Source: a bacterium (GTDB lineage: Bacteria; Patescibacteriota; Doudnabacteria; UBA920; VMFF01). From it: 51,840 bases of DNA. Under the pieces are notes generated by a model, which saw only the letters and a program-made list of their open reading frames with translations, did not search any database and had not been told where the DNA came from. Shown piece after piece: positions 9,041 to 51,840 of the stretch. Within the stretch, counting starts at the first letter, position 1; the number at the start of each line of letters is the position of its first letter. The translations under genes were made by a program, and so were the position numbers. The DNA is taken from assembly GCA_027348385.1 (NCBI GenBank), contig DAIEPO010000002.1:1-51840 (forward strand), in the 5' to 3' direction.

Positions 9041-9058
9041 GGGTACCCCTCCATTGCT

Positions 9059-9895: not shown

Positions 9896-9940
9896 TGTAT
9901 TTCTCCAGAGAGGGACAAGGGACGTGGTAAGGTTGTTAAA

Positions 9941-9978
9941 GAACACAAAAAAGCTTCCTGGCCAAAGCCAGGAAGCTT
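9941..9978 (-). terminator. strong intrinsic terminator between tyrA-pheA and the DAHP synthase gene
   Basis: Minus strand reads AAGCTTCCTGGC-tttg-GCCAGGAAGCTT (12-bp perfect stem), then TTTTGTGTTCTTT. Confidence 0.7.
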
Positions 9979-10060
9979 GAGTCGATTTTTCCAACTCAAA
10001 ATCCCTAGCTTCAGCCAGGCATAAAATAAAAGTAAAAAGATTGTGTATAAAGTTTTTTCA

Positions 10061-13696: not shown

Positions 13697-13739
13697 GCCG
13701 GTATTGAAATAAAACGTGTGTATTTGGAGACCTTTCGTT

Positions 13740-15101
13740 ATGACCAACCAACAACTTTGGCAGGCTATTTTAGGTAATCTAGAAGTATCATTAAGCAAGG
13801 CTAATTTTACTACTTGGTTTAAAAACACAGCTATTCTAGAAAAGAACGATGACCATATCATAGTCAGCGTACCTAATGGTTTCACCAAAGAATGGTTACA
13901 GAATAAATACAACAACGAGGTTATGAAAGCCTTGAAAATGATTGCTCCTGAAGTAAAAGAAGTAAAATACCAGGTTATGGGTAGCAACACACCAAGCCCT
14001 AAGACAAATACAGAAGCAAACCAGAAAACAACCACCCAAGCTCAGACACAAAGCACTCAAAGACCAGCAAGTTCTCAAAATTCTCATGGCTTAAACCCTA
14101 AATATTCTTTTGATACCTTCATAACAGGAAAGGGGAATGAACTTGCCCATGCAGCATGTGCTGCAATCGCAAAAAATCCAGGACAAGTTTACAACCCTCT
14201 TTTTTTGTACGGTGGGGTTGGTCTTGGAAAGACCCATTTAATGCAAGCTGTTGGTCATGAAGTACTAAAAAACAATCCAACTGCAAAAGTTCTGTATGTT
14301 ACAAGCGAAAAATTCACAAATGAGTTTGTTCAAGCAATTAGTTTAGGAAAAGTTGCACAATTTAAAGATCTATACCGCAATGTTGATCTATTAATGATCG
14401 ATGATATTCAATTCTTGGCCGGAAAAGAACAAACCCAGGAAGAATTTTTCCATACTTTTAACACTCTACACCAAAATAACAAGCAAATAATCCTTTCATC
14501 AGACCGCTTACCTAAAGACATCCCAGCGATCGAAGAAAGGCTTGTTTCGCGCTTTGAGTGGGGTATGATAGCAGACATCCAGGCCCCTGATTTTGAGACC
14601 AGATTAGCCATTTTACGCTCAAAAGCTGCTGAAAAACACTATGAAGTAAGCACAGAGGTGTTAACTCATATTGCAGAAACCATCCAAAGCAACATCAGGG
14701 AATTAGAAGGGGCTTTAAACCGTTTGATGGTATATTGTCAGTTAAATAACACTAAACCAACATTAGAACAAATAAAAAGCGTTTTGGTTGGTGTTGCTTC
14801 TGCTAAAAAAAGAGTTGTTTCTGTTAAAAAATTAATGGAGGTGGTTTCTGATTTTTACAACATCACTACAGATGATCTGTTAAAACAATCCAGAAGAAAA
14901 GAATTCGTTAAACCAAGACAAGTTGCAATGTTTTTAATGCGCGAACAACTAGAAAATTCTTTTCCAAGCATTGGTGATCATTTTGGTGGACGCGACCACA
15001 CAACGGTCATGCACGCTGTAGATAAGATTACAAGATTGATGAGCGAGAAGGAATCATTGAAGCAAGAAATAGATTTAATTGTGAATAAGCTGTACATGTA
15101 G
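13740..15101 (+). CDS. dnaA: chromosomal replication initiator DnaA
   Basis: MTNQQLWQAILGNL start, Walker A GGVGLGKTHL and a C-terminal DNA-binding domain (DHTTVMHA). GGAGA lies 9 nt upstream of ATG 13740. Confidence 0.95.
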   Translation: MTNQQLWQAILGNLEVSLSKANFTTWFKNTAILEKNDDHIIVSVPNGFTKEWLQNKYNNEVMKALKMIAPEVKEVKYQVMGSNTPSPKTNTEANQKTTTQAQTQSTQRPASSQNSHGLNPKYSFDTFITGKGNELAHAACAAIAKNPGQVYNPLFLYGGVGLGKTHLMQAVGHEVLKNNPTAKVLYVTSEKFTNEFVQAISLGKVAQFKDLYRNVDLLMIDDIQFLAGKEQTQEEFFHTFNTLHQNNKQIILSSDRLPKDIPAIEERLVSRFEWGMIADIQAPDFETRLAILRSKAAEKHYEVSTEVLTHIAETIQSNIRELEGALNRLMVYCQLNNTKPTLEQIKSVLVGVASAKKRVVSVKKLMEVVSDFYNITTDDLLKQSRRKEFVKPRQVAMFLMREQLENSFPSIGDHFGGRDHTTVMHAVDKITRLMSEKESLKQEIDLIVNKLYM

Positions 15102-15341: not shown

Positions 15342-16436
15342 ATGCGATTAGTCTGTACACAAGAAAATTTAAAAAAAGGTTTAGCAATAACTTCAAGAGT
15401 TTCAAACGGCAGCACAACCCTTCCGGTTTTAAATAATATTCTTTTAAAAACAGAACAAAGCGGCCTTAAACTTTCCTCAACGAATTTAGAAATGGGAGTA
15501 AACACTTGGATTAGATGTAAGGTTGAAGAAGAGGGTGGAATTTCAGTGCCAGCAAAAACAATCAGCGATCTAGTAAACAATCTCCCAAACGACAACATTA
15601 TCCTTTCTGTCGAAGATAATCATTTGTTAATAGAAACCAGTAATTACAAAACTAAAATTAAAGGTTTGGGGCCTGATGAGTTTCCTTTGATTCCTCAAGT
15701 AGATCAACATAATTCCGTTGAAATAGACTCAAAAGACCTTAAAAACAGCATATACCAAACAGTTTTTGCAGCGGCTTACAGTGAAAGTCAGCCGGAAATT
15801 TCTGGGGTTTTGTTTGCTTTTGATGACGCCAGATTAAAACTTGTCGCTACAGACCGATATCGTTTAGCAGAGAAAGAACTTAGTGTTAAGGGGAGTGTTC
15901 AAAAAAATATCATTGTACCAAACAAAACAATTCAAGAACTAGCAAAGATTTTAACAAATACTGACACTCAAACACTTTCAGTTTTTTTCACCCAAAATCA
16001 AGTAATGTTTAAAACCGACGACACAGAATTGACCTCAAGATTAATTGATGGTCAATATCCAGAATACAAAGCAATCGTACCAACCAGTTTTAATACAGAG
16101 ATTGATTTGTCAGTAGAGGATTTAAGCTCAGCAATGCGTACTGCTGGGATATTTACCCAAACTGGTAACAACGTTGCCTTAGAGTTTTCAGAACCCGATC
16201 ATTTGGAGATTAGCGCATCTTCCGGAGATTTAGGAGAAAGCAAAGTAAATGTAGCTTCCGCTGTAAAAGGGGACGCAGGGAAAATAATATTCAACCACAG
16301 ATATGTTCTTGACGCGCTTGCTTCAATAGGAACAAAGAACGTTACTTTCAGAATAGTTAATGAAAACGCACCAGCAGTTTTAGTCAGCAAAGATTTGCCA
16401 GGTTATGTTTACTTGGTAATGCCAATAAAGATATAG
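15342..16436 (+). CDS. dnaN: DNA polymerase III beta sliding clamp
   Basis: 364 aa, three-domain clamp. Conserved dnaA-dnaN-recF order. Confidence 0.95.
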   Translation: MRLVCTQENLKKGLAITSRVSNGSTTLPVLNNILLKTEQSGLKLSSTNLEMGVNTWIRCKVEEEGGISVPAKTISDLVNNLPNDNIILSVEDNHLLIETSNYKTKIKGLGPDEFPLIPQVDQHNSVEIDSKDLKNSIYQTVFAAAYSESQPEISGVLFAFDDARLKLVATDRYRLAEKELSVKGSVQKNIIVPNKTIQELAKILTNTDTQTLSVFFTQNQVMFKTDDTELTSRLIDGQYPEYKAIVPTSFNTEIDLSVEDLSSAMRTAGIFTQTGNNVALEFSEPDHLEISASSGDLGESKVNVASAVKGDAGKIIFNHRYVLDALASIGTKNVTFRIVNENAPAVLVSKDLPGYVYLVMPIKI

Positions 16437-16461: not shown

Positions 16462-17541
16462 ATGTATATTAAAAATATCCAGTTAAAAAATTTCCGCAAT
16501 CACCAAGATTTAAACTTGGATTTTACTAATGACTTTGTTGTTTTCCACGGTCCCAATGCAACCGGTAAAACTAACCTTTTAGAATCAATATATTTTCTCT
16601 CACTCTTTAAATCCTTCAGAGACGCCTCAACCTACCTTTTTTCCAAAGGGACTTTTAACCTTCAGTTAAAAGCAGTAATTGAACGTGGGAACAAGGAGCA
16701 TATTTTAGAAGTTTTCTTAGAAAACCGAGGCGGTAAAATCTTTGCTAACTTCAAATTAGACGGTGTCAGAAAGACCAAAAATCAAATAGAAAGCTATATA
16801 ACTGCAGTCATATTTGACCCAACCCACGTTGACCTATTAAACAAAGCACCCGATGACCGCAGAAGATACTTAAATATCTTGCTGTCCCAAAAATCCACAG
16901 AATACATGCAGAGCCTCTACAACTATAAGAAAGTCATTACCCAAAAAAATCAGCTGCTACAAAGCATTAGAAGCGGCAAGGCTTCTCCTTTTGAGCTAAC
17001 TGCTTGGAATGATCAGCTCGCCCTTTTTGGTTCTGAAATAATCGACCACAGAAGACAATATATAAACTACTTAAACCAAACCATTTCTGAAGTCTATGCT
17101 GCAGTCTCTGGTTTTGCCAGACCAATTGATGTTGAATACATTGGGTTAGCCGGAGAGAATAAAAATGAGATCCACGCTAACTTTAAAAAAGCGCTTTTTG
17201 ATAATCAACAAAAAGAAATTATGGCAGGAACTTCCTTAATCGGACCACACCGTGATGACTTTACTTTAAAAAGCGAAGGTTTATATTTGGCACCTTTTTC
17301 TTCTAGAGGAGAACTTCGCTCCCAGGTCCTGTCTTTAAAAATTCTTGAGCTTGAATTCTTAAAAGAAGAACAGGACAATCCAATCCTGCTTTTAGATGAT
17401 GTTCTTTCAGAACTTGATGAAGATCGCAGAGTTTTCTTACTAAAATACTTAAAGGGACGTTTCCAAACATTTATAACCAGCACTGTGCCAGTTGAGATGG
17501 AAGCACAGCATGTTAACCTAAAACAACTAAGCTTAAACTAA
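16462..17541 (+). CDS. recF: DNA replication/repair protein RecF
   Basis: Walker A GPNATGKTN, signature-like region and LLLDDVLSELD Walker B. Confidence 0.9.
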   Translation: MYIKNIQLKNFRNHQDLNLDFTNDFVVFHGPNATGKTNLLESIYFLSLFKSFRDASTYLFSKGTFNLQLKAVIERGNKEHILEVFLENRGGKIFANFKLDGVRKTKNQIESYITAVIFDPTHVDLLNKAPDDRRRYLNILLSQKSTEYMQSLYNYKKVITQKNQLLQSIRSGKASPFELTAWNDQLALFGSEIIDHRRQYINYLNQTISEVYAAVSGFARPIDVEYIGLAGENKNEIHANFKKALFDNQQKEIMAGTSLIGPHRDDFTLKSEGLYLAPFSSRGELRSQVLSLKILELEFLKEEQDNPILLLDDVLSELDEDRRVFLLKYLKGRFQTFITSTVPVEMEAQHVNLKQLSLN

Positions 17542-28028: not shown

Positions 28029-28121
28029 TTACTATTTCTTTAATTATATTAAGAGGATTTTTAAACGGGATATGCTTAATCTATCATAATCCTTTGATTT
28101 TTTCAAGGTATTTGTGGAGGT

Positions 28122-28153
28122 CCCGCTCTACAAGCTGATAGCTTGCGAGCGGG
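28122..28153 (-). terminator. GC-rich hairpin at the left edge of GC-rich cassette 2 (no U-run)
   Basis: CCCGCTC-ta-CAAGCT-gat-AGCTTG-c-GAGCGGG. Confidence 0.3.
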
Positions 28154-28172
28154 GATCCACACACCAGACCTC

Positions 28173-28382
28173 CTACTTGCTTGCGAAAGCGTGACGCACG
28201 ATCAGGCTAATGCAGGAGATGACTGCTGCTGTGATCAGCAGCGCTGTCAGCATCGAGATCATTGCCATTGCTCCGTCTTTGGTCTTCTCTGAGAGAAGAA
28301 ACGGCAGCGTTAGCAGTAGCACTGTGACCCAGCTACCCATTGCCAGATGAATCTTTCTTCCGTGCTGAGGGGCGCTTTCCAT
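28173..28382 (-). CDS. small two-TM membrane protein (69 aa), hypothetical
   Basis: MESAPQHGRKIHLAMGSWVTVLLLTLPFLL... with GAGGAA 8 nt upstream of ATG 28382. Resembles the C-terminal half of the neighbouring 139-aa protein. Confidence 0.5.
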   Translation of the reverse strand: MESAPQHGRKIHLAMGSWVTVLLLTLPFLLSEKTKDGAMAMISMLTALLITAAVISCISLIVRHAFASK

Positions 28383-28497
28383 CGTCACAATTCCTCGCAG
28401 GTTGTGGGAGTTGAAGTTTTTTTCAAACTTCTGGTGTGTGTCTGTGCTCGGAATCTCTTCGTCAAAAGACAAAGCTATCCACAAATCACAGACAGCA

Positions 28498-28526
28498 ATT
28501 ATATCCAAGAAACTTTACTTTTGCAA
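28498..28526 (-). promoter_or_regulatory. promoter TTGCAA-17-TATAAT inside cassette 2
   Basis: Minus strand reads TTGCAAaagtaaagtttcttggaTATAAT. Confidence 0.4.
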
Positions 28527-28544
28527 GACCCGGGCTATTACAAC

Positions 28545-28586
28545 AAACGAAAAGCGCCCGTTCTGATGATTTCAGATTGGGCGCTG
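28545..28586 (-). terminator. intrinsic terminator after the 139-aa membrane protein gene
   Basis: Minus strand reads AGCGCCC..TCTGA-aatca-TCAGA..GGGCGCT, then TTTCGTTTG. Confidence 0.5.
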
Positions 28587-28606
28587 TTCGCACGTGCAAA
28601 TGGGCG

Positions 28607-29026
28607 CTAGTGGTGGTGACCTCCAGCCAGGGTAAAGGAGGCAAAGAGTCCACCGGTGGCCGTAAGCCAGGTAACGCCGACGATGCTCTCAATGTTGTGG
28701 TTCATGAAAAGGAGCAACGTCAGCAAGGCCACCCCGTAGCAGATCGTTCCGACCATCATCCATCTGTCGCCATGGGACGAACGTTCTTCGAGCGCGCTCC
28801 GGTTGACGGCCAGGATGAAGAGAATCGCTGGGACGAGCATGTTGCCCATTATGTCGAACTGCTCGCCGCGGGAGCTCTGGCCGATGACCTTTGAGATCGC
28901 CCAGAAGTGGGCGGCCAGAAGGCCAGCAAGCCACCACTGCACGTTGGGCCATTCGAACAGGGCGAGGCGCTTGATGCGCTTGTGAAGTGGAAGCTTCTCT
29001 GTGGAGGCTGCGTGCGTGTGTGACAT
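28607..29026 (-). CDS. four-TM membrane protein (139 aa), hypothetical, GC-rich
   Basis: Strong GC3 bias in this frame, AAGGA 8 nt upstream of the ATG, and four hydrophobic helices. His-rich termini (MSHTH..., ...GGHHH). Confidence 0.6.
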   Translation of the reverse strand: MSHTHAASTEKLPLHKRIKRLALFEWPNVQWWLAGLLAAHFWAISKVIGQSSRGEQFDIMGNMLVPAILFILAVNRSALEERSSHGDRWMMVGTICYGVALLTLLLFMNHNIESIVGVTWLTATGGLFASFTLAGGHHH

Positions 29027-29036
29027 TAGGCATCCT

Positions 29037-29053
29037 TGTCAGCTAAGCTGACA
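29037..29053. promoter_or_regulatory. perfect 8-1-8 palindrome TGTCAGCTaAGCTGACA abutting the SD of the 139-aa gene
   Basis: The palindrome is read directly from the sequence and overlaps the last base of the SD complement (29033-29037). Confidence 0.35.
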
Positions 29054-29146
29054 GTGTGGGTTCCATGTATTTGCAGGTGCGTCCTGGTTTCGAGTTTCTT
29101 CGTTTGTTTTGAAAGACAAACAAATACGCTACAGCCAGAATAGATG

Positions 29147-40500: not shown

Positions 40501-41033
40501 GTAGAACCGGAGAAAAATTCGATGAAAGAGTAACCGTAGGTTACACCTACATGTTAAAACTGCACCACTTAGTAGATGACAAGATGCATGCTCGTTCAAC
40601 AGGTCCTTACTCCTTAATTACCCAGCAGCCGCTTGGCGGTAAAGCTCAGTTTGGTGGACAGAGATTCGGAGAAATGGAAGTTTGGGCTTTAGAAGGATAT
40701 GGTGCTGCACATACATTACAGGAAATGATTACTATAAAATCAGACGATGTTGTTGGTAGAAGCAAGACTTACGAAGCCATTGTTAAAGGTGAACCAATTA
40801 AAAAGCCAAACATTCCAGAATCATTCAGAGTTTTAGTTAAAGAACTCCAGTCTTTGTGTTTGGATGTTGATTTGTTAGGCGCTCAGGGAATAATTGAAGA
40901 TGACTCTGAAATAAAAGAGTCTATTGAAGCTTCGGTGTTGCAAGAAAAAGCTCCTGAGTCAGAACCAGCCATTGATTTTGCAGATAGTGAAAAGGTCGCG
41001 GAAAAAGAAAGCAAAAAGAAGTCTAAGAAATAA
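37548..41033 (+). CDS. rpoB: DNA-directed RNA polymerase subunit beta
   Basis: Full-length RpoB homology is obvious (e.g. [15 protein letters not shown]). ATG 37548 has GGAGAG 7-8 nt upstream. The ORF track starts at 37533. Confidence 0.95.
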
Positions 41034-41053
41034 TCTTAGAGAAAGAGACATAT

Positions 41054-44000
41054 ATGTTCACTCAATCAGATGAATTCAAAGGCGTAAGAATCAAACTGGC
41101 AAGTCCAGAGACAATACTCTCTTGGTCTCACGGTGAAGTAACCAAGCCAGAAACAATCAACTACAGAACTCAACGACCTGAAAAAGATGGTTTGTTTGAT
41201 GAAAAAATCTTCGGTCCAATAAAAGACTGGGAATGTTACTGTGGTAAATACAAACGTATTCGTTACAAGGGAATTGTTTGTGATAAATGTGGTGTTGAAG
41301 TTACCAGAAGCGCAGTTAGAAGAGAGCGCATGGGTCATATCAAACTCGCAGTTCCAGTTGCACATATTTGGTTTTTAAGAGGTGTACCTTCAAGAATCGG
41401 TGCAATCTTAAACCTTTCAGTTCAAGATCTTGAAAAGGTCTTCTATTTTGCAGCCTACATCATAACCCGCGTAGATGAAGATGCTAGAGGTGCAACCCTA
41501 GAACAAATTGAGGGTGAGTTTAAAGCAAAGAAAAAAGAAATTGAAACTAAATATGAAGCTTTAATTACAAAAGCAAAACAGTTTAAAGATCCTAAAAAAG
41601 ACGCAGAACTTGTTGCTGCAGGAATTGACGCTGAAGTTGTGCGTTTACAAGAAGCTTGGAAAAAAGAACTAGAAACTTTAGAAACAATCAAAGACCAAGC
41701 AAGGTCAGAACTTAAGGGCATCAAAAAAATGCAGATCATTTCTGAACTTGAATACAGAGATCTTTCCTTGAAATATGGTCCTGTTTTTGAAGCAGGTATT
41801 GGTGCTGAAGCTGTAAAAGGTTTGCTAGAAGATATAAACATGGAAGAGCTTTCTAGAGAACTTGATGCAGAACTAGTAAACACTGATGGTTTAGCAAGAA
41901 GAAAAGTTTTGAAGCGCTTAAAGCTTGTTAAAAACATGATTACTGCAGGACTTCGCCCTGAGTGGGGACTAATCACAAACTTGCCAGTAATTCCTCCAGA
42001 TCTTCGTCCAATGGTTCAATTAGACGGTGGACGTTTTGCAGCATCTGACTTAAACGATCTTTACAGAAGAGTCATCAACAGAAATAACCGTTTAAAGAAA
42101 CTTTTGGAAATAAAAGCTCCTGAAGTTATCACTCGTAATGAAAAGCGCATGCTGCAAGAAGCAGTTGATGCTTTAATAGATAACTCCATCAGACATGGTA
42201 AAGAAGTTACTGCATCTACAGGTCAAAAGAGAAAACTAAGATCCCTTGCAGACATGTTAAAAGGAAAGCAAGGACGTTTCAGACAAAACCTCTTAGGTAA
42301 GCGTGTCGACTACTCTGGTCGTTCAGTTATCGTTGTTGGTCCACATTTGAAACTACACCAATGTGGAGTACCAAAGAAAATGGCTTTAGAGCTTTTCAAG
42401 CCTTTCGTCATTTCAAAACTGATTGGTAGAGAATATGCACACAATGTTCGTTCAGCAAACAAACTCATTGAACAAGGCAAACCAGAAGTCTATGACATCT
42501 TGGAAGAAGTTACTAAAGATCACTATGTCTTGCTTAATCGCGCTCCAACCTTACACAGACTTGGTTTCCAAGCATTCCAACCAGTATTAATTGAAGGTAA
42601 AGCTATTCAGCTTCATCCAATGGTTTGTGCTGCTTTCAACGCAGACTTTGATGGAGACCAAATGGCTATCCACGTACCGCTAACAGAAGCAGCTCAAAAA
42701 GAAGCTAGGGAAATAATGGTCTCAGCTCACAACTTGTTGAAACCAGCTTCGGGCGATCCAGTGATGACTCCAGACAAAGACGTTGTTGTCGGATGTTACT
42801 ACATCACAAAATCACAGGATGGTATGAAAGGTGAAGGTAAAATCTTCGGATCTCCAGATGAAGCAATCATGGCTTACAGAAACGATGTCATTCACGTTAA
42901 AGCAAAAGTTAAAATTAGGGTTGATGGTAAACTCCTAGATACTTCAGTTGGAAGAGTCATCTTCAACCAACTCTTACCAAAAGAAATGGGTTTCAGAAAT
43001 GAAATATTCGACAAAAAGAAACTCCAAGCTTTGGTTAGAGAAGCACACAAAATGTATGGCAATGATTTAACTGCAGAGCTAATTGACCGTATTAAAGCAA
43101 CGGGTTTCTTCTATGCAACCAAATCAGGACTTTCCTGGGGTATGGATGACTTAAAGATTCCAGAAATTAAACAAGAATTACTAGCAAAAGCAGACGAAGA
43201 AGTAGAGCAAACATATCAGCACTTTAGAGAAGGTTTGTTAACAGAAGAAGAACGAAAAGCTCAGGTCATTGAAATTTGGTCTGGCGTTTTAGAGGAGCTT
43301 TCCAAGAAAGTTACTCAATCAGTTGATCCAAACGGTTCTGTTAACTCAATGGTTGTTTCAGGAGCTAGAGGTTCTTTTGCTCAGGTTTCCCAGATGGCAG
43401 GTATGAAAGGCCTTGTGGTTAACCCAGCAGGTGATGTCATTGAACTTCCTGTTAAAGGTTCTTTCAAAGAAGGCTTAACAGTTTTGGAATACTTCATTTC
43501 AACCCACGGATCTAGAAAAGGAATGTCAGACACAGCTTTAAGAACAGCTGACGCTGGTTACTTAACTCGTCGTTTAGTTGACGTTGCTCAAGACATTGTT
43601 GTCAACGCAGAAGATTGTGAAACCAAAGACTTCATTGAAGTTACCAGAGAAATGTCTGAAAAGATGAACAAAGATTTCGGTAAGAGACTCTTCGGACGTG
43701 TAGCTGCAGAAGACATCAAAGACAAAGACGGAAAAGTAATTGTTTCCAAAAACCAAGGTATTGATGAAGCAGACTCTAAATTAATTGGAGATGCTCAATC
43801 AGGAATTAACTCTGTTAAATGTCGTTCAGTTTTGAAATGTAAACTAGTTCGAGGTGTTTGCCGTAAATGTTACGGCTTTGACCTTGGATTCAACAAAATG
43901 GTTGAACTAGGAGCAGCTGTTGGAATCGTTGCAGCCCAAGCTATTGGTGAGCCAGGAACTCAGCTAACCATGAGAACCTTCCACACCGGAGGTGTTGCTG

Positions 44001-44929
44001 GATTAGACATTACCCAAGGTTTGCCTCGTGTTGAAGAACTTTTTGAAGCTCGTGAACCAAAAGGACAAGCTTTTGTTTCAGACATTGATGGTATTGCCTA
44101 CATTAGCAAGGCAAGCAACAAAGAATATGCAATTCGAATTGAAGGAGTAGGTGCAGAAAAAGAAGAACATCTTCTAAATGGAGCGCACACTCAATTAAAA
44201 GAAGGCGAGCATGTTACTGAAAACGAAGCTCTCTACATTGACACTAACGGTAAAGCAGAAAAAGCAAAATCAACCGGTATTGTGCATTTAGAAAAAGATA
44301 AAGTTGTCATTGTTAAAGAATCAGAAGAACACCTAAGAGAATACATGGTGCCAACTTCTTTCTCCCTGCTCATTAAAGAAGGGGATCTAATCACTAAAGG
44401 ACAACAGCTTACTGAAGGTAACTTAAACTTAGGACAAGTCTTGGCATTAAGAGGTGTTCAAGATGCTCAAAACTACATTGTTCAAGAAGTTCAAGACATC
44501 TACGTTTCTCAAGGTCAGAACATCCATGACAAACACGTTGAAGTAATGGTCAGACAGATGTTCTCCAAGATGCGCATTACTGATTCAGGAGATTCTGAAT
44601 TCTTAATGGGTGATTTAATCGACAAAGCAAGATTAAACGATACCAACGAAAAACTTTCTGCGGACGGTAGAAAACCAGCACAAGCAGAACAGCTCTTAAT
44701 GGGTATTACTAAAGTATCATTAAACACTGAATCATTCTTAGCAGCCGCTTCTTTCCAAGAAACAACTCGTGTCTTAATCGAAGCAGCGCTTGCAGCAAAG
44801 ACAGACCACTTAAGAGGTCTTAAAGAAAACGTTATTATCGGTAAACTAATTCCAGCAGGAACTGGTTTTAACCCACAAAACGCTGAGGAAATAGACACAG
44901 ACTTAGTGGTTGCTCAAAGCGAAGAATAA
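41054..44929 (+). CDS. rpoC: DNA-directed RNA polymerase subunit beta'
   Basis: 1291 aa with the zinc motif [20 protein letters not shown] and the catalytic NADFDGD. Confidence 0.95.
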
Positions 44930-44945
44930 CTGAAAAGAAAAAAGA

Positions 44946-44976
44946 AAAAGACTCCGGAATTCCGGAGTCTTTTTTA
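44946..44976 (+). terminator. intrinsic terminator after rpoC
   Basis: Perfect 20-nt palindrome GACTCCGGAATTCCGGAGTC, then TTTTTT. Confidence 0.8.
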
Positions 44977-44980
44977 GTGT

Positions 44981-45092
44981 CGGCCACCACCCTCACCAAG
45001 AATATATTAATAGCCAGACAGTATTTAGTCAATCCATGGTGGAAGTAACGGGATTCAAACCCGTGACCACTACTTGGTGAGGGTGGTGGTCG
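44981..45092. repeat. 20-bp inverted repeat (one G:T) enclosing 72 nt
   Basis: CGGCCACCACCCTCACCAAG (44981-45000) pairs with CTTGGTGAGGGTGGTGGTCG (45073-45092). Confidence 0.8.
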
Positions 45093-45108
45093 CCAGCCTG
45101 CTACTCCC
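45037..45108 (-). ncRNA. tRNA-like element (acceptor stem with G3:U70, T-arm, encoded ACCA) lacking canonical D and anticodon arms
   Basis: Minus strand reads GGGAGTA...ACGGG-TTTGAAT-CCCGT-TACTTCC-A-CCA. I found no 5-7-5 anticodon stem-loop in the 37 nt between the acceptor stem and the T-arm. Confidence 0.35.
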
Positions 45109-45166
45109 TTATTCTTTCCCTGCTATATATACTCCAGAGATATTAAATATTCATTAAGAAATAATT

Positions 45167-45196
45167 AAAAGACTCCGGAATGTTCCGGAGTTTTTA
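45167..45196 (-). terminator. terminator after the PLP-enzyme gene; near-copy of the rpoC terminator
   Basis: AAAAGACTCCGGAAtgTTCCGGAGTTTTT. Confidence 0.7.
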
Positions 45197-45228
45197 AGAA
45201 GCAGTAGAACGCCTAACCAAGGTTGCAA

Positions 45229-46050
45229 TTAAATCAAACCTTTGCCTGAATTAATTATAACGACTCTATCGCTTTCTTTAAAATTTAACTTGGAAAGTGC
45301 GCCAACCACAACCGCACTCGATGGCTCGCAATCCATGAACTTTTTTGCATAGACAAAAGCCAAATGTATTTCATCTTCACTCAATTTAATTATCTTATGT
45401 CCAGCCTCTAGGATTGATTGGATGTTTTTGCTATATGGTGTCCACGGTGTGTGTAGTTTATCAGCAAATGATGGATTAGATTCTGGGGTTATCCCGATCA
45501 ATTTAGTTTCTAACTTTGTTTTTTGCAACCCATTAAACAAGCCTACAAATGCCTCACCACTTCCAACTGGGCAAACAAGATAATCAGGATTATTTTTTTC
45601 CAGCTCTTCAATTATTGATTCATATGCTTCGTGGAATCCATTCGTTGAGTCCCAAATTACTTCTTTATCATTTTCTCTCGCTACCGCGATAATTTCTTTT
45701 GATTCTAGAATTTTTTCTGATAAGTTCGCTTCTATGACTTTTGTACATGTTTCTTCTAAGACTTGTTTGATAGTGGGGGACAAATTTAAATCTACTATGG
45801 AAACAGTCTTTATATCTGATTCATTTGCAAATTTGGCAAGAGAAAATCCTGCATTTCCCGAAGTAATAATGCAAAGTTTATTGACCAATTCATCTTTTGC
45901 TTTTTTAATAATGACTTCTGATCGTCTATCCTTCCAAGTACCGAAAGGGTTTTTACTCTCGTCTTTCACGAGTAAATTAGGAAGATTAAACTTCCTACAA
46001 AACTCATCTACTTTAACCAATGGTGTTTTCCCTGATTTAAATCCTGCCAT
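45229..46050 (-). CDS. fold-type II pyridoxal-phosphate-dependent enzyme (Trp-synthase-beta superfamily, short)
   Basis: DESKNPFGTWKDRRS (PLP lysine region) and ITSGNAGFSLA glycine loop. 273 aa. Confidence 0.6.
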   Translation of the reverse strand: MAGFKSGKTPLVKVDEFCRKFNLPNLLVKDESKNPFGTWKDRRSEVIIKKAKDELVNKLCIITSGNAGFSLAKFANESDIKTVSIVDLNLSPTIKQVLEETCTKVIEANLSEKILESKEIIAVARENDKEVIWDSTNGFHEAYESIIEELEKNNPDYLVCPVGSGEAFVGLFNGLQKTKLETKLIGITPESNPSFADKLHTPWTPYSKNIQSILEAGHKIIKLSEDEIHLAFVYAKKFMDCEPSSAVVVGALSKLNFKESDRVVIINSGKGLI

Positions 46051-46078
46051 GCTATTTCGATAATTCTTCTATATCCTT

Positions 46079-48238
46079 TTATTTTTCCCACTCTGAAATC
46101 ATCAGGAGATCTTTTTGATTTAGATTGCTCCAGATTTCCTCTGTAACAAAGGGCATAAATGGATGTAGCAGTTTTAGTGTTGTTTTCAACGTTTTTGCAA
46201 GAACAGCCTTGGTATTTGCAGAAAGTTCAGGATCTTGTAGCTGAGCTTTGCTTGCTTCAATATATATATCAGCAAGTTCATGCCAGGTAAAATGATATGC
46301 AGCTTGAGCAGCCTCATTTAACCTCAATCCTTCAATGTTTTCTGTGATTTCTTTTGTTGCTAATTCTAGTTTAGAGAGTATTTCTTTATCTGCTTCAGTT
46401 AACTTAGCTTGATCAATCTTTGTTTCAAAGTCATCAGTGTTGCTTAAAATGAATCGAGCAATGTTCCAAAGCTTGTTTGCAAAATGCTTCATTCCTTTAA
46501 TCTTTTCTTCTGCTAGTGGAATATCATTTCCTGCTGCAGTAGAAAATATCAAAGCAATACGCAAAGCATCAGTGCCATATGTATCAATGACACCTAAAGG
46601 ATCGATAATATTGCCTTTGCTTTTGCTCATCTTTTGTTTGTCTTTGTCTCTGATCAAACCATGTAAGTATATGGTTTTAAACGGAATCTCTTCTAAGAGG
46701 TAGGTGGTCATTAAAATCATGCGAGCTACCCAGAAGAAAATAATGTCATAACCAGTTTCTAAGACAGAGGTAGGATGGAATAATTCCATGTCTTTGGTTT
46801 TGTTTGGCCAACCAAGAGTTGAAAATGTCCAAAGTCCTGAAGAAAACCAAGTGTCTAGAGTATCAGGATCTTGTTCCCAGCCAGATTCTTTTGGTGCCTC
46901 AATACCGCAGTGTACCTGATCACCTTTATACCAAACTGGTATTTGATGACCATACCAAATCTGCCTGCTTATACACCAGTCTTTTAAGTTATCAATCCAA
47001 TGGAAATATGTTTTCTGGAAGTGATCCGGATATATTTTAATTAACCCTGATTCAACAGTATGGCGCATGAGTTTTTTCAAGGTTGCTTTTTCAGAAGCAG
47101 GGAAGTTTAGCTTTTGTTCAGGGCTTAATTCAAACTCTTTGTTAACATCAATGAACCATTGTTTCATTATCTGGGGTTCAATAATCCCGCCACCTCTAGA
47201 GTTTGTTGCAATTCTGTGAGCATACTTTTCATCAATCTTTTCAATCAAACCTTTAGATTGTAGTTTTTCAATGATTAAGGGACGAGCTTTTTTAATGTGC
47301 AATCCTGTAAATTCTCCAGCAATTGCTAAAAGCTTACCTTTTTGATCAATGATTTGTTCAAAATCAAGGTTGTGTCTTTTTGCAATTTCATTGTCTGCAG
47401 CATCGTGCCAAGGAGTAATTGTCATTACACCTGTGCCAAACTCCATATCAATTGAATCGTCTTTGATGATTGTTGCTTTAACAGGTCCATTAATCCATTC
47501 AAGTTCGATTTGTTGACCATGGGTATATTGAGTATATCGTTTGTCTTCTGGATGCATGACAACATATTTGTCACCAAATTTTGTTTCCGGACGAGCAGTG
47601 GCAATAGTGAAAGGGCCATACTTAAGATAGTAGAGGGAAGTGATTTCATCCTTCCATTCAATCTCATCATCAGAAACAGTTGTCTGCATCTTTGGATCCC
47701 AGTTAACCATTCTATTACCGCGATATATTAATCCAGCATCATACATTTTTTTAAACGCAGTTTTAACAGCTAAATTTCTGTCTGGATCGAGAGTGTACGC
47801 TTCTCTGCTCCAGTCTAATGAAGCTCCCATGCGTTTTGTTTGCTCAATAATCGTGTCATGACTTTCTTGAGCATATTTTTCAACACGTTTCAAAAATTCC
47901 TCACGTCCTAAATCATGGCGAGTTTTTTCTTCAGCTTTGTAAATCATTGCTTCAACCTTTGATTGAGTTGCAATTGCAGCATGATCTGTTCCTGGAAGCC
48001 AAAGTGTTTTAAAGCCAGACATCCTATGATATCTAATCAAGATATCTTGAATTACTAACATCAAGGCATGGCCAATATGAAGAATGCCAGTAACATTTGG
48101 TGGGGGCAGAACAATGTTGTAAGTTTTTGTTCTTGCACCAGGCAAGTTATCCGGATTAAAATATCCAGAATCTAACCATTTCTGGTAGATCTTTGATTCT
48201 GTTTCTTTTGGATTGTATGCTGAAGATATTTCTTTCAT
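46079..48238 (-). CDS. valS: valine--tRNA ligase (short form, 719 aa)
   Basis: PPPNVTGILHIGHAL (HIGH), KMSKSKGN, and a CP1 editing domain. Ends after the anticodon-binding domain. Confidence 0.95.
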   Translation of the reverse strand: MKEISSAYNPKETESKIYQKWLDSGYFNPDNLPGARTKTYNIVLPPPNVTGILHIGHALMLVIQDILIRYHRMSGFKTLWLPGTDHAAIATQSKVEAMIYKAEEKTRHDLGREEFLKRVEKYAQESHDTIIEQTKRMGASLDWSREAYTLDPDRNLAVKTAFKKMYDAGLIYRGNRMVNWDPKMQTTVSDDEIEWKDEITSLYYLKYGPFTIATARPETKFGDKYVVMHPEDKRYTQYTHGQQIELEWINGPVKATIIKDDSIDMEFGTGVMTITPWHDAADNEIAKRHNLDFEQIIDQKGKLLAIAGEFTGLHIKKARPLIIEKLQSKGLIEKIDEKYAHRIATNSRGGGIIEPQIMKQWFIDVNKEFELSPEQKLNFPASEKATLKKLMRHTVESGLIKIYPDHFQKTYFHWIDNLKDWCISRQIWYGHQIPVWYKGDQVHCGIEAPKESGWEQDPDTLDTWFSSGLWTFSTLGWPNKTKDMELFHPTSVLETGYDIIFFWVARMILMTTYLLEEIPFKTIYLHGLIRDKDKQKMSKSKGNIIDPLGVIDTYGTDALRIALIFSTAAGNDIPLAEEKIKGMKHFANKLWNIARFILSNTDDFETKIDQAKLTEADKEILSKLELATKEITENIEGLRLNEAAQAAYHFTWHELADIYIEASKAQLQDPELSANTKAVLAKTLKTTLKLLHPFMPFVTEEIWSNLNQKDLLMISEWEK

Positions 48239-48424
48239 ATATTTTTAGGGAAAAATAAAAAGCACTGGAAGTGCTCAAGTTCGCCCCTTGGGCGAGTTAC
48301 CAACTTGATTGGTTCTTAATTTCGTCTTTTTAACGCAAGACCTGCGGCAGGTTCTAGTCTTACAAATGTAATTTCTTCCTGCACCTACCCATTTAAGAGT
48401 TTCCGGTGACAGCCGGATTGGCTT
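48239..48424 (-). promoter_or_regulatory. T-box-like leader of valS (tentative)
   Basis: Minus strand 48307-48276 reads CAAGT-[TGGTAAC]-TCGCCC-aag-GGGCGA-ACTTG. That is two helices split by a 7-nt bulge matching UGGNACC of the T-box antiterminator. It is followed by the AGCACT-tcc-AGTGCT hairpin plus a T-run (48275-48251). Upstream is a hairpin (48398-48358) with GUA-A bulged on its 3' side. Confidence 0.4.
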
Positions 48425-48430
48425 TCCATA

Positions 48431-48459
48431 ATCATACCCAAAATGTTTATATTTAGCAA
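48431..48459 (-). promoter_or_regulatory. promoter TTGCTA-17-TATGAT for the valS leader
   Basis: Minus strand reads TTGCTAaatataaacattttgggTATGAT. Confidence 0.35.
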
Positions 48460-48502
48460 GAAATCCTCAAAAACCCCTGTGTTTATTGACTTTTTTAGTA
48501 CT

Positions 48503-48530
48503 TTACAAATTGATATGGTTATCATATAAT
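48503..48530 (+). promoter_or_regulatory. promoter TTACAA-16-TATAAT in AT-rich DNA, pointing into GC-rich cassette 3
   Basis: TTACAAattgatatggttatcaTATAAT. The GC content jumps within about 10 nt downstream. Confidence 0.4.
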
Positions 48531-48636
48531 CCAGATACCCTTTGGAAGGCCGGCAACCGTGTCGGTCTGGGGCCACTCGTTCGCACCCGTATATGTGCGT
48601 CTCGAGCGTACATTACAGGTGTAAGGAGGAACACGC

Positions 48637-49182
48637 ATGATGACCCGAAACCGGGCCGCTCCACTGGTGGCGATGATCGTGATCGTCGCTGCCACGATGC
48701 TCATCGCCGTGACGCCTGCACAGGCCACCGCGACGACCCAGACCAAGCTTCAGCAGTTCAACGAAGCGCCGGCCATCAACCAGGCCGCCATCGCCACCCC
48801 CGCCGACTTCGGCTTGGCCCTGGAGGTGGCCAGTCCCCCCGATGTTGCGTGGGCGAGTTCCAACCAGGTGTTCGCGAACTACACGGCTGCTTCGGTCTCG
48901 ACGCGCGCTGCCCCGGTCAACGTGGCCCTGGTGACGAATTCGACGGTTGACGCGAAGAAGAACCTCGTGCTCGGCGCCGCTCGCGCCGCGCCGCTGGCCG
49001 CTCAGAACAACAACCTCACGTACTCGGCCGCCGGCAACGCTGCGAACGACTTCAAGATGAACCTCGTGATCGAGAATACCCGCGTCGCGCCGGCTACGAA
49101 CGACATGAAGATCGCCGCGATCGGCCAGATCAACGACGCGAAGAAGACCGCTGCGAGCTACGGCGCCGTCGACGGCGCCTGA
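48637..49182 (+). CDS. secreted Ala/Asn-rich protein (181 aa), hypothetical, very GC-rich
   Basis: AAGGAGG 7 nt upstream of the ATG. Signal peptide MMTRNRAAPLVAMIVIVAATMLIAVTPAQA with an AQA-T cleavage-type site. Marked G/C preference at third codon positions in this frame only. Confidence 0.7.
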   Translation: MMTRNRAAPLVAMIVIVAATMLIAVTPAQATATTQTKLQQFNEAPAINQAAIATPADFGLALEVASPPDVAWASSNQVFANYTAASVSTRAAPVNVALVTNSTVDAKKNLVLGAARAAPLAAQNNNLTYSAAGNAANDFKMNLVIENTRVAPATNDMKIAAIGQINDAKKTAASYGAVDGA

Positions 49183-49393
49183 CGCTCGGCTCCACGAGCC
49201 GAGGTCGACCGGGGTTGGCACCGGAATTCCGGTCAAGGTAATGTCGTGAGGTAGCAACCAGAGCAGTACAAGAAGCCCAAGGTTCGCAACCTTGCGCTGT
49301 CCTCATGCGTACATGAACGAGTGCCAAGCCCCGCTTGGCCTCGGCTCCTTGAACCCCGACCCGCACCACAATGCAGGCCGGGGTTCATGCTTT

Positions 49394-50428
49394 CTATTTC
49401 AATTCTAACTGCGGGTTAACTTTTAACTTTGTATATTTAACTGGTTTAAAACCACCCTGTACTTTGATGGCAGCTGCATTTGCAATCATTAAAGCATTGT
49501 CAGTACACAGAGAAAAATCTGGTACATAGAATTTGTTATATATTTTACGACTGGCTGAAGCCAGTTTTTTTCGTAAGAGTTTGTTAGCAGCAACCCCACC
49601 TGAAAGAGTTATACTTTTAGTTTTGTATTTTTCCGCTGCTCTTATGGTCTTTTTAACTAAAACATCAATCACTGCTTCTTGAAAAGAGCAGGCAAGATTT
49701 GCTTTTGTTTGTGGGTTTTTTAAATTTAGTTTTTCATCACGTATTTTGTAAAGTACTGCTGTTTTTAATCCTGCAAAACTAAAGTCAAAGTTTTTTGTAT
49801 TAAGCATGGGTCTTGGGAAAGCATAGTCTTCAAATCCTTTTTTCTTTGCTTTCTTAGCCCACTTAGAAATTTCGGGTCCACCTGGGTATGCTAAGCCAAG
49901 CATTTTAGCAACTTTATCAAACGCTTCTCCTGCTGCATCATCTACAGTTGATCCAAGGATTTTAAATTTGTTTTTCTTTGTAAGGAGGATTAAATATGTA
50001 TGACCTCCTGAAACAATGAGGTTCACGCTAGGAAGTTTAATCTTTGGATCACTAACAAAAGCAGAGTAGAGGTGTCCGAGCATGTGGTTTGTAGGAATGA
50101 CTTTTTTGTTCAAGGCCAAAGCAAGACCTTTGGTGTATTCAGTTCCAACTAAAAGTGAGCTAACTAAACCAGGACCATTTGTTACAGCAAAATAGTCGAT
50201 TGATTCAAGAGGGGTTTTCGCGTCTTTTAAGGCTTTTTGAACAACCCTTGATATTTTTGAGATGTGTGCTCGGGCTGCAACCTCAGGCACAACTCCTTCG
50301 GTTTTTTTGTGTATTAATATCTGCGAAGAAACAATATTACTTAGTTTTTTAACACCTGATTTTTTCCCTGCTAAAACAACCGCTGCTGATGTTTCATCAC
50401 AAGAGCTTTCTATTGCCAGTATTTTCAT
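49394..50428 (-). CDS. tsaD: tRNA N6-adenosine threonylcarbamoyltransferase TsaD
   Basis: MKILAIESSCDETSAAV start, GVVPEVAARAH, and GGVAAN. Confidence 0.95.
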   Translation of the reverse strand: MKILAIESSCDETSAAVVLAGKKSGVKKLSNIVSSQILIHKKTEGVVPEVAARAHISKISRVVQKALKDAKTPLESIDYFAVTNGPGLVSSLLVGTEYTKGLALALNKKVIPTNHMLGHLYSAFVSDPKIKLPSVNLIVSGGHTYLILLTKKNKFKILGSTVDDAAGEAFDKVAKMLGLAYPGGPEISKWAKKAKKKGFEDYAFPRPMLNTKNFDFSFAGLKTAVLYKIRDEKLNLKNPQTKANLACSFQEAVIDVLVKKTIRAAEKYKTKSITLSGGVAANKLLRKKLASASRKIYNKFYVPDFSLCTDNALMIANAAAIKVQGGFKPVKYTKLKVNPQLELK

Positions 50429-51165
50429 TCAATTTCTTCTAAGTTTTTGAGTTCTTGCTCGACAGCAAGTTCCCAGTTGTCGCTTTGATGACCAACGTAT
50501 TTTCTAACTATTTTCTTTGGAGTATCAAGACCTGCTTGGATATAGTAGGTTTCGAGGATGCGGTTTACATCTGCTACTGCTTCATCGTAGTTTTTGTATT
50601 TCTTCATGTTCCAAGCTCCACCAATGCCCCAGCAGTTGTTTGTTACTTGGTGTTTACAAAAAGAACTTTCAGCACGAGAAATGGCAATAATAAGTTTCCA
50701 CTGGCTTTGTTCTGAGATTGCATCAACATGATCTGCAAGTGGGGTACCTTTGGCTCTGAGATATTTTTCTAAAAACTCTTTTCGTTTTTTTAGAGGATCA
50801 GGTAAAATCATGCCTTCTTTAGGCAAGTAAACCTCATCAGGTGCAAGACGAACGTTTGGATCAAATACAGGGACGTCAGGTTTATCTAGTATTGCTAGTT
50901 CGTTTGCTTTTCTTGGAAGTTCTTGAGTTATTAAGGCTTGTTGCTTTGGTGCATTGATTGCTGCAAGCCCTTGGCTAGTTGCAATTGAGAATATGAAAGT
51001 AACTACAAAAGTAATTGCAATTGTTGATATTTGTCTTTTATCAAAAAAAGAAAAAAAGTGAATTTTCTTTACAGAGAAAAAAGTTTTTTGCGTTGGTTGT
51101 TTTTTTGTTTCAACGCGCTTTGCGATATATTGGGGATTTTTTCTAATTCCGTCTATGCTTCTCAT
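50425..51165 (-). CDS. membrane-anchored hypothetical protein (possible muramidase-like C-terminal domain)
   Basis: One TM helix (IAITFVVTFIFSIA). The C-terminal domain contains AISRAESSFCK...NCWGIGG. Start at 51165 is favoured because TATAAT lies 7 nt upstream. The alternative start is 51174. Confidence 0.45.
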   Translation of the reverse strand: MRSIDGIRKNPQYIAKRVETKKQPTQKTFFSVKKIHFFSFFDKRQISTIAITFVVTFIFSIATSQGLAAINAPKQQALITQELPRKANELAILDKPDVPVFDPNVRLAPDEVYLPKEGMILPDPLKKRKEFLEKYLRAKGTPLADHVDAISEQSQWKLIIAISRAESSFCKHQVTNNCWGIGGAWNMKKYKNYDEAVADVNRILETYYIQAGLDTPKKIVRKYVGHQSDNWELAVEQELKNLEEIE

Positions 51166-51172
51166 ATCTCTC

Positions 51173-51178
51173 ATTATA
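51173..51178 (-). promoter_or_regulatory. -10 box TATAAT 7 nt upstream of ATG 51165
   Basis: Minus strand reads TATAAT-gagagat-ATG. Confidence 0.4.
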
Positions 51179-51204
51179 TCATAAAAACATGATGTAAAGT
51201 TGAC

Positions 51205-51233
51205 TTGACATTAATAATCCACTACGTTAATAT
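51205..51233 (+). promoter_or_regulatory. promoter TTGACA-17-TAATAT for msrB
   Basis: TTGACAttaataatccactacgtTAATAT. The msrB ATG has an AAAGGAGAG SD. Confidence 0.45.
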
Positions 51234-51253
51234 ATTTAAAGAAAGGAGAGAGC

Positions 51254-51664
51254 ATGGATACTAGCAAAGTGTTAAAAAGCGAAGAAGATTGGAAAAAAGA
51301 GTTAACTCCAGAGCAATATCATATTATGAGAGAAAGGGGTACCGAGGCTCCTTTTAGTGGAGTGTATGTAAATACCAAGGAAAAAGGAATGTTTCAGTGT
51401 GCTGCTTGTGGCAACCAATTATTTTCTTCAGACACAAAATTTGATTCAGGTACTGGTTGGCCAAGTTTTGATCAGGCAATTCCAGGAAGCGTAGAAATGC
51501 ATGAAGACACTTCAGCTGGAATGAGCAGAACAGAAGTTGTTTGTTCTAAGTGTGGGGCACACCTTGGTCATGTTTTTGACGATGGCCCGATGCAAAGCAC
51601 AGGCAAGAGATATTGCATTAATTCTGCTTGTTTGGTGTTGAAAAAAGAGGGTAACGGGGAATGA
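51254..51664 (+). CDS. msrB: peptide-methionine (R)-S-oxide reductase MsrB
   Basis: CAACGNQLF...GWPSF...[16 protein letters not shown]...RYCINS. Confidence 0.95.
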
Positions 51665-51840
51665 TTCAAATAATATTTGCATTACTGGCGGGTGTGTTGA
51701 CTGTTGGAGCGCCTTGTATTTTACCTGTACTTCCGATTGTTCTTGGAGCCTCAATTGGCAGAGAGAGCAAGACAAGACCATTGTTCTTAACCCTTGGTTT
51801 TATTCTCAGCTTTGTTTTTGTATCTTTAGTTTTCTCTGTG
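51661..51840 (+). CDS. ccdA: cytochrome c biogenesis/thiol-disulfide transporter CcdA (DsbD family), N-terminal part (3' end outside window)
   Basis: Hand translation gives [33 protein letters not shown]..., containing the CxxP motif. ATGA overlap with the msrB stop. Confidence 0.7.

Follow-up and report, generated by a model that had tools for sequence, protein, structure and literature searches.

We analysed a 51,840-nt stretch of a bacterial genome (contig DAIEPO010000002.1 of assembly GCA_027348385.1), hereafter the window, in which a short GC-rich island between valS and tsaD carries a single gene that we call gene X. Gene X is probably a lineage-specific and strongly transcribed gene, and its product appears to be a Sec-exported, disordered and modular protein that is diversified by recombination between strains. 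The island stands out by its base composition. Between 48601 and 49200, segments of 300 nt have a GC content of 0.64–0.66, whereas the rest of the window lies mostly at 0.33–0.42 around a background of about 37%. Within the island, 50-nt segments range from 0.50 to 0.76. A change-point estimate places the borders at about 48544 and about 49395. The left border is 8–14 nt past the −10 box of a promoter-like site (TTTACA-17-TATAAT), and the right border is the stop codon of tsaD, an open reading frame (ORF) on the minus strand (49394-50428). On the other side of the island lies valS (46079-48238), also on the minus strand. The promoter columns are invariant across all aligned loci, and a sharp island of the same kind was found in the 11 sister loci that we profiled (L001-L010 and L013). 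With a host-type promoter, a 5′ untranslated region (UTR) of about 100 nt, a strong Shine-Dalgarno (SD) sequence, an ORF and a terminator, gene X is a self-contained monocistronic unit (Table 1).

Gene X is coding, as its codon periodicity in all alleles and the preservation of its frame through indels demonstrate. The GC contents at codon positions 1, 2 and 3 are 0.60, 0.50 and 0.87. In the other 37 ORFs of the window, the third-position value (GC3) averages 0.298 ± 0.03 and never exceeds 0.36, which leaves X about 19 standard deviations off. GC3 is 0.81–0.90 in every allele of X, and the ORF has a GC content of 0.65–0.67 in the sister loci. One frame is kept in all 12 alleles from a conserved MTTR start to a conserved DAKK...stop despite many indels, and the coding length varies from 489 to 624 nt. 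The SD sequence AAGGAGG (48623-48629) stands 7 nt upstream of the ATG and is invariant across the aligned alleles. The first residue is uncertain by one codon, since other alleles start at the second ATG (48640) or with MMTT. An antisense ORF of 214 aa (48613-49257, minus strand) was rejected as a by-product of the high GC3, because antisense stops match sense codons ending in A, which are rare in X. The open antisense register also differs between alleles.

The N-terminus of the protein, MMTRNRAAP-LVAMIVIVAATMLIAV-TPAQA, has the n-, h- and c-region layout of a Sec signal peptide as judged by inspection, and the alignment shows that this layout is kept across the X alleles. AlphaFold2, run with the 9-allele alignment, predicted a helix at residues 11-19, inside the putative signal peptide, and otherwise gave no confident fold (mean predicted local distance difference test score, pLDDT, of 40). 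The P0010 allele (L009 5252-5815, minus strand), recovered from two sources, has lost 20 residues, from the last part of the hydrophobic core through the cleavage region, and the deletion is flanked by two AIIA repeats. The P0010 product may be membrane-anchored instead of cleaved, or non-functional. The mature part of X contains 25% Ala and 11% Asn and no Cys, and the C-terminal half consists of degenerate modules of 16–18 aa (ARAAP, NDFK, DAKK) whose number varies by allele. An initial annotation made from the letters of the window had described a sharp GC-rich island from a host-type promoter to the tsaD stop with one credible gene at 48637-49182 on the plus strand, a perfect SD sequence, G/C-preferring third positions and an Ala/Asn-rich, Cys-free mature part, and all of this agrees with the values above. 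For its classical Sec signal peptide, inspection shows a matching layout ending in AQA, and this layout is kept across the alleles, although P0010 lacks part of the region.

Table 1. Positions of the gene X locus features and of the second GC-rich island in the window
Feature	Position	Strand	Description
Gene X	48637-49182	+	181 aa orphan; mature part Ala/Asn/Thr-rich, Cys-free; GC3 0.87
GC-rich island	48537-49392	+	64–66% GC; coincides with the inferred transcript, from predicted start to terminator
Sigma-70-type promoter of gene X	48502-48530	+	TTTACA-17-TATAAT, 11/12 consensus matches, in AT-rich DNA
5′ UTR	48537-48636	+	5′-terminal hairpin 48538-48572; second hairpin 48576-48628 partly over the SD sequence (48623-48629)
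Signal-peptide-like N-terminus	48637-48726	+	aa 1-30: R-rich n-region, 16-residue hydrophobic core, AQA site
Hypervariable mosaic core	48620-49080	+	30–60% identity between strains versus 93–98% in flanks
Degenerate repeat modules	48949-49107	+	16–18 aa, KKNLVLGAARAAP / NNNLTYSAAGNAA / KMNLVIENTRVAP; NDFK/NDMK and DAKK motifs; families D1-D3, D5
Structured 3′ UTR domain	49183-49349	+	closing helix of about 25 bp (49196-49221 with 49321-49347) around inner hairpins
Anti-SD-like motif GUCCUCAUGCG	49299-49309	+	complementary at 11/12 positions to the start-codon region 48633-48644
Terminator-like hairpin	49350-49387, region to 49400	+	UGAACCCCG...CGGGGUUCA, U-rich tail; helix 4 97.5% paired
Second GC-rich island	28116-29095	−	same layout as X; promoter TTGACA-17-TACAGT at 29175-29147

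Foreign high-GC DNA brought into an AT-rich contig, either by misassembly or by contamination, would produce the same contrast in composition, and that contrast is all that speaks for such a chimera. The initial annotation had proposed a check of the junctions and their coverage. In run X1, one Logan contig spans 48061-49579 with 0 differences and a depth of 7.85, compared with 6.4–6.5 in the flanks. Both junctions are crossed at even depth by contigs from 3 runs in 2 studies, and allele P0004 was recovered in 4 independent assemblies. The same junctions recur in independent assemblies of several studies and pipelines, namely metagenome-assembled genomes at NCBI and assemblies from ENA, JGI and Logan. 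The sister assemblies and the junction-spanning contigs refute a chimera, and we regard its probability as negligible.

The protein search with X found nine relatives with 39–63% identity. We built a profile hidden Markov model from 9 alleles and searched 1.84 billion representatives of about 15 billion proteins. The search returned 7 clusters only, all of them members of the X family. Pfam (E≤10), NCBIfam and PDB sequence searches with X gave no match, and PHROGs gave a single marginal match (E=0.006). Phages and plasmids, searched with tblastn, contained no match to X, and a pattern scan of viral contigs was likewise empty. In a metagenome-wide scan, the invariant 18-mer of the 3′ UTR (CGAGCCGAGGTCGACCGG) matched 120 times, in no case together with the cassette and always by chance in high-GC genomes. 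The X family is an orphan, and these searches pointed to no donor.

Every copy of X with a readable context sits in the valS-tsaD slot of an AT-rich genome (12 alleles found). The order rpoC, valS (minus), X (plus), tsaD (minus) is complete in L001, L005, L006 and L007, and in shorter loci (L002-L004, L008-L010, L013 and L136-L138) X stands beside tsaD, the valS leader or both. Three short contigs keep the AT-rich ends of the valS leader and of tsaD around X. The assemblies with the locus come from NCBI, ENA, JGI and Logan. Scanning species-representative genomes for TsaD added three more genomes with 87–91% TsaD identity, all with the island at the same site, and three genomes at 47–55% TsaD identity (L011, L012 and L014), which have neither the island nor a valS neighbour. 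Among the sampled genomes, X is present in every one with a TsaD identity of 87% or more and missing where that identity is 55% or less. The record names indicate Patescibacteria, including two Candidatus Doudnabacteria and two generic Saccharibacteria labels. X occurs only in one genus-level lineage of Patescibacteria, a part of the candidate phyla radiation (CPR), and throughout it. Because it is fixed at one site in all the genomes above the TsaD threshold, X is not a recent insertion; patchy presence among these close relatives was not seen. The window contains no tRNA and no repeat of the island, and the neighbours are valS and tsaD, so that no mobility signature was recognized.

These results bear in different ways on the initial annotation. 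It had named no family for the protein and had seen no integrase or repeats beside it, as is borne out by the searches of the protein databases and of the window. Its description of the protein as actinobacterial in style is apt for the composition, but an actinobacterial origin finds no support, given that the profile search recovered the X family only and the phage, plasmid and viral searches were empty. The view of a recently inserted cassette has to be given up with X fixed at the valS-tsaD site, and the sister genomes showed the family to be common in its host lineage, to which it is confined and in which it is universal. The variability of X, the conserved RNA structure of its 3′ UTR and its resistance to amelioration, which we describe below, had gone unnoticed.

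Alleles of X differ far more than the sequences around them. Between the window and L006, the valyl-tRNA synthetase and TsaD proteins are 97.9% and 96.2% identical (about 95% in nucleotides for both), whereas X is 42.4% identical (61% in nucleotides) and the 211-nt 3′ UTR is 97% identical. The AT-rich 300 nt upstream are nearly invariant in the five loci aligned in full, and neighbouring non-housekeeping genes are 82–94% identical. The divergence is arranged in blocks, with recombination breakpoints in the core at about 48870, 48930 and 49080. According to the sliding-window identity, the window diverges from L007 only up to about 48870 and from L006 up to about 49080. L007 and L006 are identical to about 48870 and then 32–64% identical to about 49060, so that L006 follows L007 to about 48870 and the window beyond about 49080. 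L006 and L010 are 96–100% identical over 48568-48930, with flanks at 77–95%. This block structure indicates the exchange of segments between diverged strains. The rate of synonymous substitution (dS) supplies a comparison with the flanks: it is 0.49 in X versus 0.19–0.24 in the flanks for close strains, and 0.43–0.65 in X versus 0.77–1.7 in the flanks for distant strains. The ratio of nonsynonymous to synonymous rates (dN/dS) is 0.65–1.0 in X and 0.04–0.09 in the flanks. Gain and loss of modules is visible in the allele alignment.

Several X alleles occur side by side in single samples. Runs X2, X4, X5 and X13 contain co-occurring alleles over 48400-49500, and their assembly graphs break at 48540-48630. 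Examples from the RNA and the runs include an L001-like block in place of 48875-48979 and, in RNA, an L006-like block in place of 48790-48960. Given these co-occurring alleles and graph breaks, automated binning will probably break up the X locus or pair its alleles wrongly. Run X1 contains the complete locus with a single allele, and apart from two 35-nt chance matches none of its other contigs has a match to X at 80% or more. Silent promoterless copies of X were found neither in the window nor among the contigs of run X1, and the 52-kb window repeats no part of the island, whether as a second copy or as a template repeat. Adenine-templated, indel-free variation, as made by diversity-generating retroelements (DGRs), was not seen in the alleles; they vary by indels and block exchanges, and their Asn (AAC) stretches are conserved.

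The initial annotation had suggested looking for expression in metatranscriptomes, and X is expressed in two independent ones (one from sediment, one from soil), with contigs on 48654-49307 and 48941-49115. Within 41000-51800, the same metatranscriptomes contain nothing else except short cross-mapping pieces of rpoC. RNA contigs from X but not from its neighbours indicate that X is transcribed well above them.

The two ends of the transcript are conserved and structured. The 5′ UTR folds with a z-score of −2.1, and its pairs are conserved, none of them with a compensatory change. The 3′ UTR folds with a z-score of −4.9, and across 11 loci 96% of the cells are paired, with compensatory changes at 9 pairs. 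As high a score was reached by 0 of 500 shuffles, and slid controls were 22–44% paired. The G-U pairs of the 3′ UTR fit the plus strand only. The ORF part of X folds no better than shuffled sequence (z = 0.0), by which a specific mRNA structure within the ORF is ruled out. The terminator hairpin abuts the tsaD stop codon and may serve both convergent genes. In the P0008 allele (L138 892-1093), the 3′ UTR has lost about 75 nt. Only the first 10 nt are left of the 5′ arm of the closing helix, and much of the domain interior is gone as well, but the 3′ arm is complete and both the invariant motif and the terminator are retained, so that the inner part missing here may be dispensable.

The 3′ UTR domain contains a motif complementary to the translation start. 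Its first nine bases, GUCCUCAUG (49299-49307), are invariant in 11 of the 11 aligned 3′ UTRs, and the full 11-mer is present in 9. The duplex of the motif with the SD and start region has a predicted energy of −15 to −22 kcal/mol in all 12 alleles, versus −9 to −14 for shuffles. The complementarity suggests that the motif may control the translation of X. L013 and L008 carry three substitutions in combination, namely G to A in the start region, G to A in the local stem and C to U within the motif. These changes keep both alternative pairings; as a single evolutionary event, they are only suggestive of a switch between the 5′ and 3′ ends.

The GC-richness of X seems to be maintained. Flank dS reaches 1.0–1.7 across the lineage, so that synonymous sites there are saturated, and the GC3 of X still lies in the range given above for every allele. 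Among the third-position differences, 47% are exchanges of G and C between X alleles versus 2% in valS and tsaD. The third positions of X change freely yet stay G or C. By a rough two-rate calculation, neutral third positions would relax from about 0.9 to about 0.4–0.5 under the bias of the host. Since GC3 has been held while the flanking synonymous sites became saturated, we infer that something maintains it. Selection on the transcript and GC-biased gene conversion are the candidate forces. The former would be the most likely, because the composition switches no more than about 10 nt from the promoter and terminator and the conserved UTRs match the variable core in GC-richness.

A second GC-rich island in the window has the same layout (Table 1). 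It contains an ORF for a 139-aa membrane protein (28607-29026, GC3 0.78) and a second small ORF (28173-28508, GC3 0.59) with its own TTGCAA-17-TATAAT. The family of the second island is an orphan confined to the lineage, with 5 members at 76–83% identity, and the island is syntenic (uvrB, island, rpsT, polA) in L139 and L140. At 64–89% nucleotide identity, compared with 94–98% in its flanks, it is the fastest-evolving segment of its neighbourhood. The shared layout and the fast evolution of the second island support a common cause. More tentatively, and with considerable doubt, we propose that the lineage carries a class of transcript-delimited and non-ameliorating GC-rich islands, with at least 2 in the window, in which GC-richness itself is selected. 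Each such island would stand behind a host-type promoter, encode a small orphan envelope or secreted protein and be the fastest-evolving segment locally. GC-richness could give an unusually stable, nuclease-resistant mRNA, or it could suit a nucleic acid that has to work in contact with a GC-rich partner; translation would then be controlled by the conserved 3′ UTR and its invariant anti-SD-like motif. There is also a moderately GC-enriched gene pair at 8400-10000 on the minus strand (46–48% GC, GC3 0.44–0.45). Judged by eye from the translations, it consists of a chorismate-mutase-like gene (8516-9040) and a DAHP-synthase-like gene (9059-9994), and it resembles shikimate-pathway genes that were acquired in the ordinary way and have partly ameliorated since.

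We consider it probable that these features belong to an exported protein diversified between strains. The product would be a low-complexity and probably disordered protein of about 150 aa after cleavage, exported by the Sec pathway and built of short degenerate modules. Homologous recombination between strains would reshuffle its alleles, as would unequal crossing-over among the internal modules, and the conserved promoter with the 5′ UTR and the structured 3′ UTR would provide fixed ends for the exchange. The mosaic alleles that result would be old and would spread through the lineage without being tied to the genome backbone. Such a pattern would be expected of an exposed protein under diversifying (frequency-dependent) selection, which might act where the cell meets its host or through attack by phage or antagonists. 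The GC-richness would be a long-standing, maintained trait of the transcribed unit, yielding an end-protected and nuclease-resistant mRNA. Several points weigh against this scheme. The RNA evidence consists of assembled contigs, which carry no strand information. With z = 0.0, no specific mRNA structure is selected in the ORF, which leaves the coincidence of the borders to argue for selection on the transcript. A dN/dS near 1, with the differences distributed evenly among codon positions, is also expected without constraint on the protein. The pLDDT of 40 is consistent with disorder and equally with a shallow alignment of 9 sequences, and the predicted Sec export of X derives from an N-terminus seen by inspection.

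Two alternatives concern the composition of the island. In line with the initial annotation, an ancestor of the lineage may have taken over the cassette from a bacterium of high GC content, perhaps its actinobacterial host, in which case the composition would be a relic of the donor. This transfer would explain the origin only, and it is compatible with the later diversification of an exported protein. It fits a GC3 of 0.87 at about 19 standard deviations above the host mean, the sharp borders, the lack of the island in the more distant L011, L012 and L014, and the two further GC-richer islands in the window. However, no homologue was found outside the lineage among the 1.84 billion representatives or in phages, plasmids and viral contigs, and there is no integrase, tRNA or flanking repeat. 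A relic should also have ameliorated by now, with flank dS at 1.0–1.7, GC3 still at 0.81–0.90 and third-position changes that are largely G to C or C to G. The island starts exactly at a host promoter, and so does the second island, which is unlikely for two independent insertions. Transfer is thus possible but on the unlikely side. GC-biased gene conversion, a rival for the cause of the GC content only, would keep GC high through frequent recombination with biased repair of heteroduplexes. The stationary GC3 is expected under it, and in both GC-rich islands examined, divergence and mosaicism exceed those of the otherwise conserved neighbourhood. Conversion tracts would be expected to fade at their ends, but the borders flip within about 10 nt at the promoter and terminator, and the 3′ UTR is as GC-rich as the ORF yet 97–100% conserved among close strains. 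We know of no conversion effect in bacteria as extreme as a rise from 0.30 to 0.87, which also counts against this explanation, and we consider it unlikely.

Two other alternatives change the nature of the gene. The ORF could be incidental or secondary to a structured or regulatory GC-rich transcript, with RNA as the functional product or as one of two functions. The covariation support of the 3′ UTR (z = −4.9), the invariant anti-SD-like motif, a dN/dS near 1, the lack of a predicted protein fold and the coincidence of island and transcript are all in line with such an RNA. An incidental ORF would hardly retain three-base periodicity in every allele (GC3 0.81–0.90), one frame through many indels, a strong invariant SD sequence 7 nt from the ATG and a conserved signal-peptide layout. 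The ORF also lacks excess structure (z = 0.0) and no Rfam family matches, and we judge an RNA product to be quite improbable. Programmed diversification, with X as the target of a DGR or as an expression site fed by silent cassettes in the manner of pilE/pilS or vlsE, would account for the conserved ends and mosaic core, the Asn-rich composition and the structured element immediately downstream of the ORF. It is opposed by the lack of a second copy or template repeat in the 52-kb window and of any copy at 80% or more in the contigs of run X1. The indels and block exchanges, with AAC-rich stretches among the conserved parts, are not the pattern of DGR mutagenesis, and one allele per strain is assembled reproducibly. 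Programmed diversification appears very unlikely to us. Diversification of an exported protein by exchange between strains remains our preferred explanation.

Other features of the window were recorded as well. The valS leader (48239-48459, minus strand) is nearly invariant in 7 loci and has a promoter-like TTGCTA-17-TATGAT at 48459-48431. Several hairpins in it are conserved, and 20 nt before the valS ATG stands a terminator hairpin and its U-run (48276-48260), so that from its sequence the leader looks like a transcription attenuator. It carries GUUGGUAAC, which resembles the UGGN bulge of a T-box, and the Rfam T-box model had no match even at E≤10. Rfam gave 0 matches at the gathering score in the window, and at E≤10 the matches in 48200-49450 did not rise above chance. 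The genes rnpA (13021-13356, minus strand), dnaA (13716-15101), dnaN (15342-16436) and recF (16462-17541), identified by eye from the translations, stand together, and because of this cluster the window probably includes the replication-origin region. The minimum of the cumulative GC skew lies further on, at about 21–22 kb.

CPR bacteria are thought to live attached to other cells, and the molecules of this interface are almost unknown. As a lineage-specific, strongly transcribed, apparently exported and strain-divergent protein, X would be a prime candidate for an interface molecule, or for a target of phage or antagonists. It also offers a concrete marker for strain typing in metagenomes and a clean natural case for studying how a local base composition is maintained, with mRNA selection set against biased gene conversion. 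Compositional islands such as this one are not reliable evidence of recent horizontal transfer.

Surface-protein loci that vary between strains and are exchanged by homologous recombination are known elsewhere, including the Clostridioides difficile slpA cassette, streptococcal emm and the central domains of flagellins. X resembles these in being one expressed locus at a fixed position with conserved flanks and a putative signal peptide around a divergent mosaic core, in having alleles that would be older than the genome backbone and uncoupled from it, and in its high expression. It differs from them in its size of about 15 kDa, in having no recognisable anchoring or assembly domain and no predicted fold, and in a base composition unlike that of its genome. 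Surface-layer (S-layer) genes are highly expressed, and stabilising 5′ UTR hairpins have been described for them. X is not S-layer-like, since S-layer proteins are self-assembling, anchored and of 40–200 kDa, whereas mature X has about 15 kDa and no Pfam domain; only its composition and high expression are similar. With pilE/pilS, vlsE and the targets of DGRs, X shares conserved ends, a variable centre, mosaic alleles and an adjacent structured element. Unlike in these systems, no silent copies, template repeat or reverse transcriptase were found in the window or in the contigs of run X1, and the variation of X includes indels and is seen between strains.

Acquired islets and orphan ORFs have in common with X a strong compositional deviation, sharp borders, a narrow lineage and no homologues elsewhere. 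X departs from acquired islets in that it has no mobility signature, is fixed and syntenic, has not ameliorated and has its borders at transcription signals. The mycobacterial PE/PPE genes are similar in style only, as GC-rich genes for Ala/Asn-rich, repetitive, polymorphic and exported proteins shaped by recombination. X has no Pfam PE/PPE match (E≤10), an N-terminus that looks Sec-type rather than ESX-type and an AT-rich host genome.

In the literature we found no account of this locus, and the sole related case is a hypervariable gene of Gracilibacteria. It encodes a surface protein with PTD repeats in Gracilibacterium (BD1-5) (Sieber et al., 2019; PMC6851277). As the article presents that gene, both cases combine a CPR organism, a low-GC genome and one extremely variable locus that fragments assemblies. 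Like X, the Gracilibacterium protein is predicted there to be extracellular and has an N-terminal hydrophobic segment, and its gene is read as a trait pressed to diversify, possibly at a host interface (PMC6851277). The two proteins have no homology. In the article's account, the nucleotides of a tandem 9-mer repeat vary in Gracilibacterium while the amino-acid repeat is conserved, whereas the amino acids of X diverge to about 40% identity, and X diverges by block exchange and by gain and loss of modules, unlike the Gracilibacterium gene. A term search of the article's main text returned no mention of a compositional island or a structured UTR (PMC6851277). The kind of system to which X would belong, a strain-variable exposed protein diversified by recombination, is already known, and what is unusual about X is its CPR context, its orphan family and a transcript-bounded island that resists amelioration.

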